NCBI GenBank assembly: GCA_031414955.1
Contig: JANOQV010000142.1
Location: 1 to 43,393, forward strand
From: Pedosphaera sp.
Lineage (GTDB): Bacteria > Verrucomicrobiota > Verrucomicrobiia > Limisphaerales > SIBH01
Direction of reading: 5' to 3'
Length of the DNA stretch: 43,393 nucleotides
In this document: positions 16,686-23,794 of the stretch, piece by piece
Layout: the number at the start of each line of letters is the position of its first letter
How positions within the stretch are numbered: position 1 is the stretch's first letter
Program-made: the position numbers and the translations under genes
The notes under the pieces: generated by a model
What the model was told of the DNA's origin: nothing
What the model saw: only the letters and a program-made list of their open reading frames with translations
The model's database searches: none

Positions 16686-19600
16686 ATGATTATGAACACG
16701 AACCAACCGCCCGACCGCGAAAAGGAACTCTTCGAGCAAGCCGTCGAGATTACTTCGCCCCAAGAACGCGCCGCCTTCCTCAACATCGCCTGCGCTGGCC
16801 AGCCTGCCTTGCGCGAACGCCTCGACAACCTCCTCCGCGCCCACGACGAAGCCGCCTCCAAATTTCTCGGCGATCGGCCCGCCGCCGCCCCCGCCACCAT
16901 CCGCCTCACCGTGCCCGACGAAGAAAAACTCGGCACCATGATCGGCCGCTACAAGCTGCTGGAAAAAGTCGGCGAAGGCGGATTCGGCAGCGTGTATGTC
17001 GCCGAGCAACGCGAACCGGTGAAACGCCGCGTCGCCCTTAAGGTCATCAAGCTCGGCATGGACACCAAGGAAGTCGTGGCCCGCTTCGAGGCCGAGCGCC
17101 AAGCGTTGGCCATGATGGATCACCCGAACATCGCCAAGGTGCTTGATGCCGGCGCGACGGAGAGCGGCCGCCCCTACTTCGTCATGGAACTCGTGCGCGG
17201 CATTCGCATCACCGACTATTGCGACCAGAACCAGCTTCCCACCCTCGACCGTCTCAAGCTCTTCATCCAGGTTTGCAACGCCGTGCAGCACGCGCACCAG
17301 AAGGGCATCATCCACCGCGACCTCAAGCCCTCGAACATCCTCGTCACCCTCCACGACGGCGTGCCCGTGCCCAAGGTCATTGACTTCGGCATCGCCAAGG
17401 CCACCCAGCAGGAACTCACCGACAAGACGGTTTACACGCAACTCCAGCAATTCATCGGCACGCCCGCCTACATCAGCCCCGAGCAGGCCGAGATGAGCGG
17501 ACTCGACATAGATACCCGCGCCGACATCTACAGCCTCGGCGTGCTTCTCTACGAACTGCTCACCGGCCAGACGCCCTTCGACGCGCGCGAACTGCTCAAG
17601 GCCGGACTCGATGAATTGCGCCGCACCATCCGCGAAGTCGAGCCGATGCGGCCCAGCACGCGGCTCACCCTGCGTCTCGCCCGCTCCGCCGGTCCCGGAG
17701 CGCCGGCGTCCTCGCCGGCGTTGGACGGTACAGCGCGCAAAGCCAGCGAGGACGCTGGCGCTCCCCCCTCGCCTCGCTCCCGCAAGGAAGTCCAAAACCT
17801 CCAGCACCTTATCACCCTCGTCCGCGGCGACATTGATTGGATCGTGATGAAGTGCCTGGAGAAAGACCGCACCCGCCGCTACGACACCGCCAACGGCCTC
17901 GCCGCCGACGTGCAACGCCACCTGAGCAACGAGCCGGTCATCGCCCGCCCGCCCAGCACGCTCTACCGCCTCCAGAAAATGGCGCGGCGCAACAAGCTCG
18001 CCTTCGCCGCCACCACCGCCGTCCTCACCGCGCTCGTGCTGGGAATATCCGTCAGCGCCTGGCAGGCCGTGCGCGCCAGCCGTGAATCCGCCACGGCACG
18101 ACGCGCGGAAACCGCCGCCCGCTGCGCCGAAACTCTCGCCCAAACCGAGGCCCGCCGCGCCGATGACGAAGCCCGCCGCGCGACCACCGCCACCACCGCC
18201 GCCCGCCAGTCCCTCGCCGCCGCCGACTTCTACCAGGCCACCCGGCTGGTGGACGCCGACAACACCTCCGAGGCGCTCCCCTTCCTGGCCCGCAGCCTGT
18301 CCCTAAACCCGACCAACCCCGCCGCGCGCACGCGCCTGTTCACTTTGCTCAACTACCGGACATGGATGATGCCGAAGCTGGTGCTGACCAACGCGGGCCA
18401 CACCGAGCATGCGGCGTTCAGTCCGGATGGCGCGCGGATTCTGACCGTATCAAGTAATGGTGAGGCGAGACTCTGGGACGCTTGGACTGAGAAACCGTTG
18501 ACGGCAACCATGACATGCGAACCATTTCCGAATTTCTGGAGTGACGAGCTGCCTTTTGAATTCAGTGCTGACGGAAAACGACTTCTGACCTTCCACAACA
18601 ATCATGTCAAAGTTTGGGATGCTCTCTCGGGTCGTCTTTTGACAGAGCTAGGTGACGTTCTTGACAGGGCGCGCCAATCGGGCCGCATTACACTTGCTCA
18701 CTTCAATCCTGCCGGAACACGGTTCGTTGGCGTCACGAAGTATTGCGCCCAAGTGTGGGATGCTCAGAATGGCAATCCCATCGTCGGCCCGTTTGGCGAC
18801 GAGGCCATCGAGTCGGCTCGATATACCTCAGATGGAACAAAGGTTCTGACCATCTCTATGACCAGCCACGGTCGCGTTTGGGACGCGCAGACAGGACAGC
18901 CGTTGACAGCGCTGTTTGCCCGCCCAGACGTCGCGGAGATTTTTTGGAGTCCTGACGGTTCCCGGATTGCGGCTGCTCACGGGAAACCACCGCGATGGGA
19001 TGAGAGTAAGTCGGAGATTGAATGGTATTTTAGCAATGATGATTCGACAGCACGAATTTGGGACGCGAAGACGCTCCAGCCACTTGGATCCAGAATGCCC
19101 TTCAGCTACCAATATCGGAGTTTGAATTTCAGCCCAGACGGAAGCCGAATCATCGCCGACGAAGACGGTAGTGTGTGGGACGCGAAGAGCGGTGAACCGG
19201 TCCCTGCGCTTCAACCTAAGAACGGGTGGTGGGCAACCAGTTTCAGCCGGGATGGAAAAAGGATCCTTGCCGAGAGCATTAGGAGTGAGCGGCGGGTTTT
19301 GGATGCTTTTTCAGGCCAGCCTGTAACGGAATCGTATCCAGAGAGAGGGCACGCTCAGTCCGAAGTCAGCCCCGATGGCAATCGCGTAATGTACCTGATG
19401 GAGGATGGACATCTCTGGATGCTTGATACACGCCCAGCCACAGAACCATCCCGCTTATTTGGCGAAGCACAGAGCATCGCGTCGGCAAGGATTTCACCAA
19501 ATGGTCGATTGCTTGCCACCGTCACGACCAACGCCGTCACGCTCTGGGATGTGGAAAGTGGAACAAGCTCCGTGTTGGCCACCGAAAAGTCAGGCAAGGC

Positions 19601-20561
19601 GAAGGCCGAGTTCAGCACAGACGGTGAACAACTCATCGTCGTATCGGGTGCAAAAACCGCGCAAGTGTGGAACGTCAGAACCCGACAACGCCTAACCCCA
19701 CCGAGAAGTTTCGGCGCAGCGACCAAATTGCTAGTCGTCAGTCCCGACGGCAAATGGATCGCCACCGTGACCACCAATCAAATTCTAGCCGTTGTGAATG
19801 CGCTCACGGGCGAGGAAGTTTGGAATAAGGTGGGGCGTTGGTACGGAGCTTGGTTCAGTCCAGATAGTCGATGGCTCTCGGCCTCGGGACAAACCACCAA
19901 CGGAGCCACTGCGTCGGGAGCCTTCGATACCAAGACTGGTGATCGAAAACCGATTTCTGGTCAGAACGGGGAGGTTTCGCGCGCACCTCGGTTTAGTCCA
20001 GAAGGTGACCACTTTCTTGGCGGAGCCGGCAACAGCGTCGAGATGTACGAAACTCACAGCGGTGCGCTATTGCTTAGAGGACTGGAGGCAGAGAAGGAAA
20101 TTCACAACTTCGCTTTCGGACGAGAAGGACAGCAAATCATCACACAGTCCGTGCAGGCTGACGGGTCAGCAAACCTACGCCTCTGGGACGCAAACAGCGG
20201 TCTGCTCATCGCCGACCCTTTCCACGAACACAGAAGAAATTATCCACAAACGGCAGGTGCTTTAACCCTTGATGGCCGTTGGCTGGTCACGGTGTCCACG
20301 AATGGGCAGGCGTGTTTGTGGAACCTCAGCCCGCCGCCCGGCGCGCTGCCGGGGTGGATGGCGGACCTGTTGGAGGCGTTGAGCGGGAAAGTGCTGAACG
20401 CCCACGGCGTGCTGGAGCCAACCCAGCGCGACCCCGCCCAACTCCTCGCCACCCTCCGTACCCAGTCCGCCGCCGCCCCGCCCACCGACGAGTGGGGCAC
20501 CTGGCTCCGCTGGTTCCTCGCCGACCGCGCCACCCGCGGCCCCTACCCGCTCACGCCGTAG
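16686..20561 (+). CDS. Hanks-type Ser/Thr protein kinase with TM helix and C-terminal WD40 beta-propeller repeats
   Basis: GEGGFGSVY, VALK, HRDLKPSN, DFG and GTPAYISPEQ motifs; TM LAFAATTAVLTALVLGISVSAW; more than 10 repeats of FSPDG...(L/V/I)WD type. Confidence 0.96.
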   Translation: MIMNTNQPPDREKELFEQAVEITSPQERAAFLNIACAGQPALRERLDNLLRAHDEAASKFLGDRPAAAPATIRLTVPDEEKLGTMIGRYKLLEKVGEGGFGSVYVAEQREPVKRRVALKVIKLGMDTKEVVARFEAERQALAMMDHPNIAKVLDAGATESGRPYFVMELVRGIRITDYCDQNQLPTLDRLKLFIQVCNAVQHAHQKGIIHRDLKPSNILVTLHDGVPVPKVIDFGIAKATQQELTDKTVYTQLQQFIGTPAYISPEQAEMSGLDIDTRADIYSLGVLLYELLTGQTPFDARELLKAGLDELRRTIREVEPMRPSTRLTLRLARSAGPGAPASSPALDGTARKASEDAGAPPSPRSRKEVQNLQHLITLVRGDIDWIVMKCLEKDRTRRYDTANGLAADVQRHLSNEPVIARPPSTLYRLQKMARRNKLAFAATTAVLTALVLGISVSAWQAVRASRESATARRAETAARCAETLAQTEARRADDEARRATTATTAARQSLAAADFYQATRLVDADNTSEALPFLARSLSLNPTNPAARTRLFTLLNYRTWMMPKLVLTNAGHTEHAAFSPDGARILTVSSNGEARLWDAWTEKPLTATMTCEPFPNFWSDELPFEFSADGKRLLTFHNNHVKVWDALSGRLLTELGDVLDRARQSGRITLAHFNPAGTRFVGVTKYCAQVWDAQNGNPIVGPFGDEAIESARYTSDGTKVLTISMTSHGRVWDAQTGQPLTALFARPDVAEIFWSPDGSRIAAAHGKPPRWDESKSEIEWYFSNDDSTARIWDAKTLQPLGSRMPFSYQYRSLNFSPDGSRIIADEDGSVWDAKSGEPVPALQPKNGWWATSFSRDGKRILAESIRSERRVLDAFSGQPVTESYPERGHAQSEVSPDGNRVMYLMEDGHLWMLDTRPATEPSRLFGEAQSIASARISPNGRLLATVTTNAVTLWDVESGTSSVLATEKSGKAKAEFSTDGEQLIVVSGAKTAQVWNVRTRQRLTPPRSFGAATKLLVVSPDGKWIATVTTNQILAVVNALTGEEVWNKVGRWYGAWFSPDSRWLSASGQTTNGATASGAFDTKTGDRKPISGQNGEVSRAPRFSPEGDHFLGGAGNSVEMYETHSGALLLRGLEAEKEIHNFAFGREGQQIITQSVQADGSANLRLWDANSGLLIADPFHEHRRNYPQTAGALTLDGRWLVTVSTNGQACLWNLSPPPGALPGWMADLLEALSGKVLNAHGVLEPTQRDPAQLLATLRTQSAAAPPTDEWGTWLRWFLADRATRGPYPLTP
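17697..17764. repeat. GGAG-type REP doublet inserted in-frame in the kinase CDS
   Basis: GGAGCGCCGGCGTCCTCGCCGGC (17697-17719) and its inverted copy at 17742-17764 match 21/23; translated as GAPASSPALDGTARKASEDAGAP. Confidence 0.85.
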
Positions 20562-20738
20562 GACACGGCTTCCAGCCTGTCCCACCAACTGAATTGGAGG
20601 CGGAAAGAAAACCGCATCGCCACAAAGAACGCAGAGAGCGCAAAGAAACGGCACTTCACCTCTCTGTGTTCTTTGCGTTCTCTGTGGCAAACAATTCAGA
20701 AGTTTGATTGGTGGGACAGGCTGGAAGCCATGTCCTAC
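20558..20738. repeat. GTAG-type REP doublet with a nested nonamer-repeat hairpin
   Basis: 31-nt arms 20558-20588 and 20708-20738 match 30/31. Inner arms 20619-20646 and 20661-20688 match 23/28, all differences A/G. The leading GTAG contains the kinase TAG stop. Confidence 0.92.
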
Positions 20739-20832
20739 GCCGCCGCCCCCACCCACCGACGAATGGTCCGCCTGGCTCCGCTGGTTCCTCGCCGACCGCG
20801 CCACGCGCGGCCCCTATCCGCTCACGCCGTGA
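20739..20832 (+). pseudogene. Displaced copy C' of the kinase 3' end (..PTDEWSAWLRWFLADRATRGPYPLTP*)
   Basis: About 90% identical to 20469-20561 (9 substitutions and 1 indel by hand alignment); several changes are synonymous and TAG becomes TGA. Confidence 0.9.
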
Positions 20833-20855
20833 GCGGAAACTGAGCACCGAAACGA

Positions 20856-21067
20856 CAAGCCCGGAGGGCTTGAATGTGAATAGCCTCCGGTGCAACCGGG
20901 GGTAAAGCCGTCAAAGCAAACCCGACCCCGGAGGGGTCGAACCGTGTGACCAGCGAACGTGGTCGGTTTCAACCCCATCCGGGGTTGTAACCGCAGTGAC
21001 CACGCAACCCCGGGTTCGCTCGTGCCTCGCGACCCGGGGCTATTCACGTTCAAGCCCTCCGGGCTTG
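20856..21067. repeat. Multi-hairpin palindromic (REPIN/MITE-like) element
   Basis: 30-nt terminal inverted repeats 20856-20885 and 21038-21067 match 29/30; inner arms GACCCCGGAGGGGTCGAA / TTCAACCCCATCCGGGGTT. Same architecture as 4871-5107. Confidence 0.9.
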
Positions 21068-21071
21068 GCCT

Positions 21072-21114
21072 AACTCCTCGCCACCCGCCGCACCCAGTCC
21101 GCCGCCGCCCCGCC
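21072..21114 (+). pseudogene. Displaced copy B' of the kinase tail
   Basis: 41/43 identical to 20440-20482. Confidence 0.85.
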
Positions 21115-21139
21115 GACCAGCGGGTTCCTCATCCTCGCG

Positions 21140-21385
21140 TCAAACCACTTCTTCGCCGTTCGCAACTTGTCCGGGTTGCAAAAAAGTTCTGATGAGTTCG
21201 CCTTCACCACAGACGGTCATGGCGGAAAACTTCTTGAACCAACGGCCTTCCGGCACTTCCGGTTCCAGAGCCAGCCAGTCGGCCAAGAGTCCGAGTTGAT
21301 CGGCGGAGATGTGCCGGCTGCCCACGCGGTCGAGCAGGTGATCGAGCAGGCGCGGGGGCAGGCCGTGGCGGCGGATGCGCGGCCT
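21140..21385 (-). CDS. Small putative toxin-like protein; canonical start apparently lost (AGG at 21385) or later GTG start at 21325
   Basis: Open frame RPRIRRHGLPPRLLDHLLDRVGSRHISADQLGLLADWL...TVCGEGELIRTFLQPGQ starts 3 nt after the upstream gene's stop. H-x-x-x-R-x-x-x-R-x-I-S loosely resembles DUF4258/BrnT-like RNases. Confidence 0.5.
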   Translation of the reverse strand, partial: RPRIRRHGLPPRLLDHLLDRVGSRHISADQLGLLADWLALEPEVPEGRWFKKFSAMTVCGEGELIRTFLQPGQVANGEEVV

Positions 21386-21388
21386 GGG

Positions 21389-21598
21389 CTACTCGCCGTA
21401 AAACCCGCGATGAATTTCGTCGCGCAGTTTCGACACTTCGGCGGGGTCGTTCGTGTTCGCCATGCTCTGGGCGAGACCAGCCAGCTTTTCACCGGACAGT
21501 TGGCGTTCACGCGCCAGCTCGAAGGCGAATTGAATCACACGCGACTGTTCCGCGCGCGGCAGATGCTTGATCTCTTCAATGACACCCGTGGCAGTCAT
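21389..21598 (-). CDS. Small helical protein, putative antitoxin/addiction-module component (69 aa)
   Basis: MTATGVIEEIKHLPRAEQSRVIQFAFEL resembles addiction-module antitoxin N-termini; promoter-like motif immediately upstream. Confidence 0.65.
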   Translation of the reverse strand: MTATGVIEEIKHLPRAEQSRVIQFAFELARERQLSGEKLAGLAQSMANTNDPAEVSKLRDEIHRGFYGE

Positions 21599-21604
21599 GG
21601 CTGC

Positions 21605-21633
21605 ACCGTATCGGAGGATGCGTCGGCGCTCAA
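21605..21633 (-). promoter_or_regulatory. Putative promoter giving a leaderless mRNA for the TA-like pair
   Basis: TTGAGC (21633-21628), 17 nt, TACGGT (21610-21605), 6 nt, then ATG at 21598. Confidence 0.5.
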
Positions 21634-21689
21634 AGAAAATGTCACGGTGGAACCGGGCAGAAAACTGCCAGAGTGAAGTGCCGGAAGCC

Positions 21690-21761
21690 TGAGCGGGAAA
21701 GTGCTGAACGCCCGCGGCGTGCTGGAACTCACTCAGCGCGACCCAGCCCAACTCCTCGCCA
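21690..21761 (+). pseudogene. Displaced copy A' of the kinase tail (LSGKVLNARGVLELTQRDPAQLLA)
   Basis: 66/72 identical to 20380-20451; three of five changed codons are synonymous. Confidence 0.9.
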
Positions 21762-21957
21762 GCCGCCGCCGCTCGGTGCATCGCTGTTCATGGCGGGAAA
21801 GGATTGAGACCGGAGCACGGAGCATCGTTCGCCCAGCGGGCCAGCGGTGTTCACATGGCCGGGCATCGTCCGGCACTCCGTCCACGGCTGGACGAATTGT
21901 TGGAGGGCCTGATCGGCGCGGCCAGTGGCCCGGGGCGGGCGTGGTTTCGGTCCGTGC

Positions 21958-23502
21958 TCAGGCGAACACGATCCGGCACACGATGACGGAGGCGACGATG
22001 CCGGCCACGTCGGCCAGCAGCCCGGCGGCCACGGCGTGGCGCGCGCGCTTGACCGCCACGGAGCCGAAGTAAACCGCCAGCACATACAAGGTCGTCTCGG
22101 TGCTGCCGATGATGGTGCCGGCGGTGCGGGTGATGAGGTGGTCGGGGCCGAAGCGGTTGATCAATTCGATGAACAGGGCGGTGGTGCCGCCGCCGCTGAT
22201 CGGGCGCATCAAGGACAGGGGGAGCAATTCGCCGGGGAAATGGATGAGATCGAGCAGGGGGCGGGCGGCCTGTGTGATGACGTCGATGCAGCCGGCGGAC
22301 CGAAACATGAAGACGGCCACGAGCATGGCCACGACGTGCGGAATGATGGTGAGCACGACTTGGAAGCCTTCCTTCGCGCCTTCCACAAATTCCTCGTACA
22401 CCTTGAGTCCGCGCAGCGCGCCATAGAGCGGGAAGAAGGCCAGCAGCAGTGGAATGGCGAGGATGGAAACGGAGTCGATGGCCCGGAGTCCGCCGGATTT
22501 GTGGCGCTCCACTTTCTCCGCGTGAACGAGCGCGCCGACGGGACCGGCGGCTTCCGCCCGCAACTGGGACGTGAGGTCGCCCGCCTTGGGGCAAGATGGG
22601 GGATGGGCCCGGGCGATGACGCTGGTGGTGCCGTCGTCGAGGAGCAAGGTCAGGTTGGTGGCGCTTTCCGCGAGCACGCGCGCCTGCACGGTCGGGCCAG
22701 TCCGGCCATGGTCACAGAAGACGACGCGGGCCTGGCCCATCGGTACCTGGCCGCTGGGAAAAGTCATGGCGTAGAAAATCCAAACTGCGACCGCAGCCAG
22801 CGCGAGCAGGAGCAACCGGCCCGGCCAGCCGAGGGGGCGAAGGATGGGGGCCGCTTCCAAGGGCGATGATTCCTCGTCCGGGGCTGCGTCGGTGGAGGTG
22901 GCGGCGGGCGATGGTGGCAGCCGGAACCAGCGTAACTTTTCCAGGGTCTTCACGGAGATCAACCCCACGAGGGTGGAAACCGTGGTGGCCACCAGGGCCG
23001 TGCCGATGATGGCGGTGGGGCGCACGGAACCGGCGGCGGCCAGCATGGCGATCTGGTTGGCGGGGATGAGCTGGATGGAACTGGTGTTGATGGCGAGGAA
23101 CGTACACATGGCGTTGCTGGCCGTGCCGGGATGGGGATTGAGGCGCTGCAAGTCGCGCATGGCGCGCAGGCCGAGCGGGGTCGCGGCGTTGCCGATGCCG
23201 AGCATGTTGGCCGCCATATTCATCATCATGGAACCCATGGCGGGATGGTCGGGCGGGACATCAGGGAACAGCCGGCGCATGAGCGGACGAATGCCGCGGG
23301 CCAGCAACTGGATCAGCCCGGCCTTCTCGGCCAGGCGCATGACGCCGAGCCACAGGGCCATGACGCCGATCAGTTTGAGCGCGATCTCGACGGCTTTTTC
23401 CGCGCCCTTGATTCCTTCCTGAGCGACTTCATCCATGTGATGGGTGAAGCCGCCGAAGAGGACCGCGCAAAGAATCAACCCAAGCCAGATGTAGTTGAGC
23501 AC
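21958..23502 (-). CDS. Fused SpmA/SpmB-like nucleoside-recognition (Gate) domain membrane protein
   Basis: MLNYIW, LFPDVPPDHPAMG, ANMLGIGNAATPLGLRAM (SpmA half); YEEFVEGAKEG, RPISGGG, GSTETTLYVLAVYFGSV (SpmB half). Confidence 0.93.
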   Translation of the reverse strand: MLNYIWLGLILCAVLFGGFTHHMDEVAQEGIKGAEKAVEIALKLIGVMALWLGVMRLAEKAGLIQLLARGIRPLMRRLFPDVPPDHPAMGSMMMNMAANMLGIGNAATPLGLRAMRDLQRLNPHPGTASNAMCTFLAINTSSIQLIPANQIAMLAAAGSVRPTAIIGTALVATTVSTLVGLISVKTLEKLRWFRLPPSPAATSTDAAPDEESSPLEAAPILRPLGWPGRLLLLALAAVAVWIFYAMTFPSGQVPMGQARVVFCDHGRTGPTVQARVLAESATNLTLLLDDGTTSVIARAHPPSCPKAGDLTSQLRAEAAGPVGALVHAEKVERHKSGGLRAIDSVSILAIPLLLAFFPLYGALRGLKVYEEFVEGAKEGFQVVLTIIPHVVAMLVAVFMFRSAGCIDVITQAARPLLDLIHFPGELLPLSLMRPISGGGTTALFIELINRFGPDHLITRTAGTIIGSTETTLYVLAVYFGSVAVKRARHAVAAGLLADVAGIVASVIVCRIVFA

Positions 23503-23588
23503 GCCCCGAGGTACGCAACCCGCTCCTGAATGGCGAGCCGATTCTTCCGGGGTCGCCGTGTGCGTTCCGGACCCGCCACTTTCACTCG

Positions 23589-23794
23589 CACCCGCCTCTG
23601 GTCAGCGCGTTGGAGGTGGCGGGCACGAAGCCGTCCGGCCGGAGTGTGCCCGTCCCGGGCGCAGCCACGTCCGATCGCACGATGCCTTGGGGACAACCCC
23701 AGCACCTCGCCACGCTCGAGCTTGCTGCGCCCGAGGACGGGCGCACTCCGGGCCCGCCACGAATCAATCCCACCCGCCTCTGGTCAGCGCGTTG
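23589..23794. repeat. GGAG-type REP doublet flanked by a perfect 24-bp direct repeat
   Basis: CACCCGCCTCTGGTCAGCGCGTTG at 23589-23612 and 23771-23794. Between them are inverted arms 23639-23665 / 23724-23751 and GTGGCGGGC / GCCCGCCAC (23616-23624 / 23752-23760). Confidence 0.9.

Follow-up and report, generated by a model that had tools for sequence, protein, structure and literature searches.

Layered copies of a kinase gene tail in a Pedosphaera genome: a probable stack of integrase-free insertions with long target duplication

The stretch of DNA analysed here, referred to as the window, comprises 43,393 nucleotides of Pedosphaera sp. (contig JANOQV010000142.1, or C142, of assembly GCA_031414955.1). 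The source genome (G000) has a size of 6.5 Mb in 313 contigs and is 95.9% complete with 5.8% contamination. The window carries a gene for a Ser/Thr kinase with a WD40 propeller, and the end of this gene recurs behind it in several pieces, here called scars, which alternate with palindromic repeats and a toxin-antitoxin (TA)-like gene pair. The organization, relatives and probable origin of this scar stack are described below.

Organization of the locus

The features of the locus are listed in Table 1. Three segments of the kinase tail (A, B and C, all within 20380-20561) recur downstream in direct orientation as C', B' and A', in this order, and the whole scar stack measures about 1.2 kb. This arrangement had been proposed from the sequence letters, and the copies, their shared 12- and 11-mers, the two palindromes and the TA-like pair are all real. 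BLASTN of the tail against its own genome aligns C' (20738-20830) with 20468-20559 at 91.4% identity over 93 columns (E 2e-30; about 90% had been estimated), A' (21690-21768) with 20380-20458 at 89.9% (E 6e-24) and B' (21068-21118) with 20436-20486 at 92.2% (E 4e-14). The identity counts given earlier for the shorter versions of B' (41/43) and A' (66/72) were reproduced exactly. A' probably reaches about 25-35 nt further upstream in a decayed form. A' and B' form a repeat of only 24 bp (22/24 identical) right around the two-gene module; they have in common one change that is absent from live tails and that sits at the uncertain end of A'.

Table 1. Features of the kinase tail region (window coordinates)
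Feature	Position	Strand	Description
Ser/Thr kinase - predicted membrane segment - WD40 propeller gene	16686..20561	+	1291 aa; Pkinase domain and WD40 repeats
Conserved tail block	20262..20561	+	90% DNA identity to genome G004 over about 300 bp
REP1	20558..20738	.	181-bp GTAG...CTAC hairpin resembling a doublet of repetitive extragenic palindromes (REPs); nested second multicopy palindrome at 20616-20690
C' scar	20739..20832	+	Former gene end with TGA; position is that of the live gene end in G004
Spacer after C'	20833..20855	.	23 bp; homologous to the spacer behind the stop codon in G004
REP2	20856..21067	.	212-bp dispersed composite palindrome; same element in the same place in G004 (83%)
B' scar	21068..21118	+	What is left of a B+C copy (complete in G004) after loss of its 3' part; Gln>stop change
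Toxin-like gene	21140..21385	-	81 aa; start codon lost in this copy; predicted fold closest to RelE/ParE
Antitoxin-like partner gene	21389..21598	-	69 aa; in other copies, immediately precedes the toxin-like gene
A' scar	21690..21768	+	Decayed extension probably from about 21664
Stretch between A' and the spmAB-like stop	21769..21957	.	189 bp
Fused SpmA/SpmB-like Gate-domain gene	21958..23502	-	Convergent right-hand neighbour of the scar stack

Assembled reads support most of this structure. Logan contigs from X1, a possible source of the assembly, and from X2, a second sample of the same study, cover 21042-23600 and 21042-22246, respectively, with 0 differences. They bridge the junctions of B' with the module, of the module with A' and of A' with the spmAB-like gene, and X1 also bridges that of the tail with REP1. 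No listed Logan contig piece bridges the junction of REP1 with C' by 31 bases. That of REP2 with B' is covered by only 26 bases on one side, but G004 provides independent evidence for it by having the same junction. In runs X3 and X4 the tail is of the C' type; their contigs cannot separate a live allele from a scar.

The scars as former gene ends

Codon differences between the scars and the live tail comprise 10 synonymous and 9 non-synonymous changes, the latter including the Gln>stop of B' (ratio of non-synonymous to synonymous change per site, pN/pS, 0.34; p=0.018). The synonymous bias that had been described is thus present, although only synonymous changes had been cited and there are about as many others. 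The Gln>stop and a 1-nt indel in C' are decay. Two residue changes in C' (G>S and T>A, giving 'SA') and one in A' (T>S) occur in a live homologous protein, P0002. Judged from these patterns, descent of the copies from once-coding tails is supported. The change of the stop codon from TAG to TGA, which had been noted earlier, also needs correction: C' does end in TGA, but the TAG of the live gene is made of the first bases of REP1, and the gene of the relative G004 ends in TGA like C'.

The donors were first thought to be paralogous alleles. Within the genome, BLASTN found the tail only in this gene and in one orphan 67-bp piece at the DNA level, and BLASTN together with TBLASTN found other kinase tails to be at most 37% identical in protein. 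Paralogues in this genome can be rejected as donors since none has the tail; a homologous kinase with the tail is present in G004, a genome of the same genus.

A diversity-generating retroelement was also considered for the window and rejected, as neither copy has its codon differences restricted to adenines. A locus elsewhere in the genome (G000:C267:10019-13428) does look like such an element, judging by its pattern: a 139-bp tail repeat lies behind a gene of 498 aa, almost every site that differs between the copies is an A in the downstream one, and the intervening ORF is accompanied by a probable reverse-transcriptase ORF.

Relatives of the locus

Among 400 genomes of the order, strong matches to the tail were found only in G004 and G007, both of the same genus. 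When the tail region was used as a protein query, P0001 and P0002 were the only matches among 651 candidates, and an exact degenerate DNA pattern of the tail gave 0 metagenome matches.

The comparison with G004 (C102) is the most informative. A homologous kinase lies there at another chromosomal site and is followed by the spacer, by the same REP2 and by a complete B+C copy, with a junction between REP2 and B that is the same as in the window. G004 has neither the layer of REP1 and C' nor that of the module and A'. Its layout of tail, spacer, REP2 and complete B+C copy implies that C' sits where the older gene end was, that REP1 together with the new C end is one added layer, and that B' is a B+C copy which was cut later. 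The absence of the REP1 and C' layer from G004 also makes plausible the earlier proposal that the gene end was exchanged for that of incoming DNA, the old end being displaced downstream along with cargo.

Tail pieces are also found apart from the kinase. In G007 (C206), an orphan A piece lies among TA genes, and the kinase helical anchor was not found in that genome. In the source genome, at G000:C184:146683-147527 (L142 and adjoining sequence), an extracytoplasmic function (ECF) sigma gene has no kinase behind it and is followed about 190 bp later by an orphan B fragment (82%); this locus has probably lost its kinase.

More distant homologues were surveyed as well. Of 49 homologous loci, 42 are distinct, and 36 of these extend 500 bp or more beyond the gene. 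Four of the 49 have tail copies behind them, including the G004 locus and a low-complexity match. At L078:3589-4672, a distant kinase-WD40 homologue is followed by a C-type copy and by the same two-gene family in the orientation seen in the window. At L079:1-1680, the sequence behind a WD40-kinase tail contains a palindrome and a probable TA pair enclosed by two copies of another C-terminal tail, possibly the record of an earlier, different gene end.

The two-gene module and the palindromes

The module at 21140-21598 belongs to an uncurated, widespread family with over 2400 homologues. The toxin-like protein has no Pfam, NCBIfam or PADLOC family over the cut-off. The model of a 92%-identical homologue (pLDDT 90.7) gave RelE/ParE toxins in the top 8 rows of VIA-align, the best with a middling score (Z 5.4, root mean square deviation 3.0 over 63 residues), and no Foldseek match at E 0.001. 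The two genes are adjacent in 8 of the 10 copies examined; one further copy is cut by the end of its locus and one gave the toxin match alone. The module is therefore a candidate for an uncharacterised TA family with a RelE-like predicted fold. In five of nine other copies it lies between direct repeats of 78-318 bp, among them that in the rmuC tail of this genome, and the module ends differ between copies.

Both palindromes fold far better as DNA than their shuffles (z = -13.3 for REP1 and -10.6 for REP2). REP1 consists of GTAG-tagged hairpins in an inverted pair and in this respect resembles a GTAG REP dimer or REPIN. Its inner palindrome has 5 copies in the genome; at the search threshold applied, its outer arm has no copy outside this locus. 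GTAG REPs are described as GTAG-tagged hairpins in Verrucomicrobia whose termini often give the TAG stop of the adjoining ORF (PMC3733652). REP1 likewise provides the stop of its neighbour; the word 'duplication' does not occur in the main text of that paper. C' begins directly after the CTAC of REP1 and B' directly after the last base of REP2, the latter also in G004, so that both start 0-1 base from a REP end. Long direct repeats flank 0 of 12 other REP2 copies (14 copies examined) and 0 of 4 other copies of the inner REP1 palindrome. REP2 was accordingly rejected as the cause of the duplications.

Tail scars elsewhere in the genome

A genome-wide scan, based on a simple custom gene caller (4416 genes, of which the 3620 of at least 150 aa were tested), found a direct copy of part of the last 300 bp within 4 kb downstream for 32 of the 3620 genes. 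The controls in the same scan gave 12 upstream copies, 12 mid-gene copies and 0 inverted copies. After inspection by eye and removal of tandem paralogues, 17 of the 32 genes were kept, with 18 scar pairs at 16 genes besides the kinase. These 18 pairs show 85 synonymous against 54 non-synonymous differences (pN/pS 0.21, p=4e-20), and several of the scars differ at synonymous sites only. The host genes include those for LepA, IspH/LytB, GcvP, pyruvate carboxylase and RmuC. Of the cargo ORFs behind the scars, 11 of 12 tested match Pfam (ParE, RelE, MazF, four PIN, HNH, DUF433, DUF6883 and AAA_14). A looser method gave 42 genes with matches, including some tandem-repeat noise; they comprised 1 of 44 kinases and 41 of 3349 other genes (p=0.42). 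The tail-scar footprint, mostly with TA cargo and behind unrelated genes, is general to this genome and not specific to kinases, and the proposal of a kinase-specific cassette system finds little support.

Further stacks that combine TA cargo with at least two tail copies lie at G000:C280:4681-6323, C165:33074-37109, C159:3162-5857 and C106:4803-7046. At two sites of G000:C67 and one of C149, the scar pairs end 30-82 bp before the stop codon, and the C-terminus would seem to have been changed to another one by the incoming DNA. At gene starts, direct copies are found upstream in 22 cases and downstream in 13, possibly a weaker mirror form of the same process.

A probable series of stacked insertions at the kinase gene end

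Insertion with long target duplication, for which Nobusato et al. 2000 is reportedly the reference, is the known process closest to this locus. It places an insert of under 20 kb between imperfect direct repeats of over 30 bp, with no integrase, and these repeats often lie at a gene start or stop, the gene being kept intact (Furuta, Abe & Kobayashi 2010, PMC2853133). The scar stack shares the size range, the repeat length, the position at the stop codon and the lack of an integrase with the cases described there. The duplications measure 93, 79 and 51 bp against the live tail; the inserted DNA is below 20 kb and without integrase or transposase, its ORF list consisting of two small genes only. 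Three differences from that account should be noted. The cases there were screened for restriction-modification cargo, whereas the cargo here is REPs and a RelE-like pair; there are three layers here; and two of the scars are truncated, which makes the copies tile the tail in reverse instead of simply repeating it. The locus is a layered variant of this already known type of insertion, which is general to this genome, and the scars themselves are probably a stack of such integrase-free events at one gene end.

In the mechanism that we favour, DNA of a related strain would bring its own allele of the kinase tail and what lay behind it, either a REP doublet or a TA pair. The gene side would be joined by homology and the other side by an illegitimate junction inside the resident tail, so that the gene would remain intact with a new end, while the old end would become a downstream scar that is later trimmed. 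Homology-facilitated illegitimate recombination, an experimentally described route of DNA gain in naturally competent species (PMC2884548), would have such an outcome: one homologous anchor and one illegitimate junction would give the end of the new allele, the cargo and the scar of the old allele. We infer that it acted at this locus. Stacked tail duplications are not described as its product in the passages of PMC2884548 at hand. ComEC and DprA are present in the genome, which lends weak support; 10-11 of 14 control genomes have them too.

Three layers can be read in this way. The first, the succession of tail, spacer, REP2 and B+C copy, is common to the window and G004. The second consists of REP1 and a new C end, which would have arrived in this lineage and left C'; it distinguishes the window from G004, and the direction of the change would be that of a gain. 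In the third, the B+C scar would have received the two-gene module and A'. The simplest route would be a crossover, in the B part of the shorter scar, with a small circle or fragment that had a longer tail piece, giving the order B', module, A'; a deletion of what lay behind A' would then also be needed. A survival filter may have shaped the result, as long overlaps between scars would collapse harmlessly by recombination, whereas the kinase would lose its C-terminus in an excision via a truncated scar. The reversed, barely overlapping appearance of the copies would result from such nesting and survival.

Several points weigh against this interpretation. In a toy simulation with three random pieces, reversed order with near-tiling occurred in 0.2-0.7% of trials; if overlaps are limited to 25 bp, the probability of tiling rises to 19-100%, but that of the order remains 1 in 6. 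A wholly empty site was not found in relatives, and a search of 13 family genomes gave no close orthologues of the flanking genes: for the recF-spmAB interval, an SpmAB match was present in 1 of 13 (36-38%) and the upstream gene in 3 of 13 (29-35%). Some of the repeats around the module elsewhere (L052, L053 and C106) may be of intergenic origin and unrelated to gene tails. Nor is the synonymous bias in itself proof of a foreign donor, since synonymous changes are also gained when a live copy drifts away from a local duplicate. Finally, the start of C' and B' flush with a REP end is not predicted by stacked insertion.

The locus is a clear example of how genes can be gained at gene ends, layer upon layer and without a dedicated enzyme. 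On this evidence, long target duplications that look like alleles accompany most of the spread of TA pairs in this verrucomicrobium, which helps to explain how small TA modules move without transposases. Among openly accessible papers, the literature searches listed none that deals with tail scars in stacked or reversed form, or with TA pairs as cargo at verrucomicrobial gene ends.

Alternative explanations

A more far-reaching idea is that small circles composed of a TA pair and a piece of host gene tail excise via the long repeats and re-integrate by homology into other tail copies, including old scars. The reversed succession of B', module and A' would be the footprint of such an event, and the conserved tail of this verrucomicrobial kinase family would serve as landing pad and as the right arm for swaps of the WD40 sensor region between strains. 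We regard this idea as doubtful. Release and re-invasion via the repeats is raised as a hypothesis by Furuta et al., without evidence (PMC2853133), and the circles, if real, would supply what is missing for that step.

REP-associated tyrosine transposases (RAYTs) offer another route. A single-strand (HUH) transposase cutting at REP ends could mobilise a gene tail together with its REP, the cut end setting the start of the scar as in circles of the insertion sequence common region (ISCR) type, by which part of the 3' segment of an integron is duplicated. The flush starts of C' and B' described above favour this mechanism, as does L094, where a palindrome likewise lies between tail and copy; the genome has five putative RAYT-like ORFs, assigned by their motif. 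Nevertheless, the other copies of both palindromes lack long flanking direct repeats, the bases before other scars in the genome show no common REP end by eye, and flush junctions could also arise by deletion next to a REP. REP-driven capture is unlikely at this locus.

A dedicated receptor-kinase exchange system, as suggested by the original prediction, would use the tail as a purpose-made anchor for swapping kinase ends or sensors, with the scars as its record. The mosaicism of the kinase, including the block switching of P0002 (see below), the tail copies behind homologous loci, L078 with the same two-gene module, and the orphan pieces behind the ECF sigma gene and in G007 all agree with such a system. 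However, kinases are not enriched among scarred genes, and the excess among homologues outside the window lineage is not significant (p about 0.06; 2 of 32 compared with the background of this genome only). In addition, nothing in the scars could serve as an alternative sensor, the tail is absent from all paralogues and there is no recombinase nearby. The tail, a conserved block in a mosaic gene, can be read as a recombination anchor, as had been inferred, but little speaks for a dedicated system, which we consider rather improbable.

Local tandem duplication of the tail, by slippage in GCC-rich DNA and followed by REP and TA invasion and by erosion through deletion, would require no foreign allele. 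Exact removal of REP1 from 20558-20832 leaves an in-frame tandem of C and C' as the C-terminus, which could be chance (1 in 3). The spacer after C' is weakly similar to the start of A (173 of 5000 shuffles are as good), and drift of the live copy alone could account for part of the synonymous bias. Against this, the scar-specific residues are live in P0002, several scars elsewhere differ at synonymous sites only, and C' is at least as near to the downstream copy of G004 (differences at 5/89 sites) as to its own gene (7/92), small numbers in both cases. Purely local duplication thus has a very low probability.

An assembly artefact from collapsed or mis-ordered repeats might be suspected in a fragmented assembly with some contamination, where the junction between REP1 and C' is unbridged by the listed contigs, but it is very unlikely given that the copies are 8-10% apart, that two samples give an identical succession of B', module, A' and spmAB-like gene, and that the junction of REP2 with B recurs in G004.

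Comparison with other known systems

Integrative islands at tRNA genes or other gene ends, and arrays of orphan C-termini of the Rhs and contact-dependent inhibition (CDI) type, also duplicate a gene end and restore the gene. Likeness to both had been proposed, and neither fits. An island of the tRNA type with its own integrase is rejected, as there is no integrase on the contig and the ends of module and scars are variable in place of fixed att sites; of the 8 tyrosine-recombinase (PF00589) matches in the genome, none is on this contig. An orphan C-terminus array is rejected because the scars are copies of the conserved tail only, with no propeller sequence, alternative sensor or other coding module downstream.

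Complex class 1 integrons with ISCR and a duplicated 3' conserved segment (3'-CS) carry cargo between partial direct copies, and recombination between the copies gives circles (PMC3934969). Cargo between partial direct copies is common to both, but the duplicated segment here is the end of a protein-coding gene. As neither ISCR nor an integron integrase was found here, this reading was rejected.

Neighbouring sequence and mosaic structure of the kinase gene

For the 189 bp that follow A' (21769..21957), a search of 300 genomes from the order yielded nothing convincing, and the region listing names no RNA holder.

The kinase gene is a mosaic of conserved anchors rich in GC at third codon positions (GC3) and a divergent propeller region of lower GC3. 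Differences from G004 at four-fold sites amount to 0.09-0.26 in the kinase, helical and tail blocks and to 0.62-0.77 in the WD40 propeller. In the WD40 region (18370-20260), GC3 is 0.56-0.59 compared with about 0.9 in the flanking blocks, and four-fold sites are saturated relative to G004; composition and divergence make propeller swapping between alleles probable. P0002 switches between the two genes in blocks: its kinase insert is 99% identical to G004 and 45% to the window gene, whereas its membrane and coiled region is 91% identical to the window gene and 32% to G004. The kinase gene is a recombination mosaic, a pattern which suggests swapping of sensor domains between strains.

A dispersed palindromic repeat (9 copies found) lies within the kinase coding sequence at 17690-17770, where it is read in frame as an insert. 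The insert at the same position in G004 and P0002 is a different sequence.

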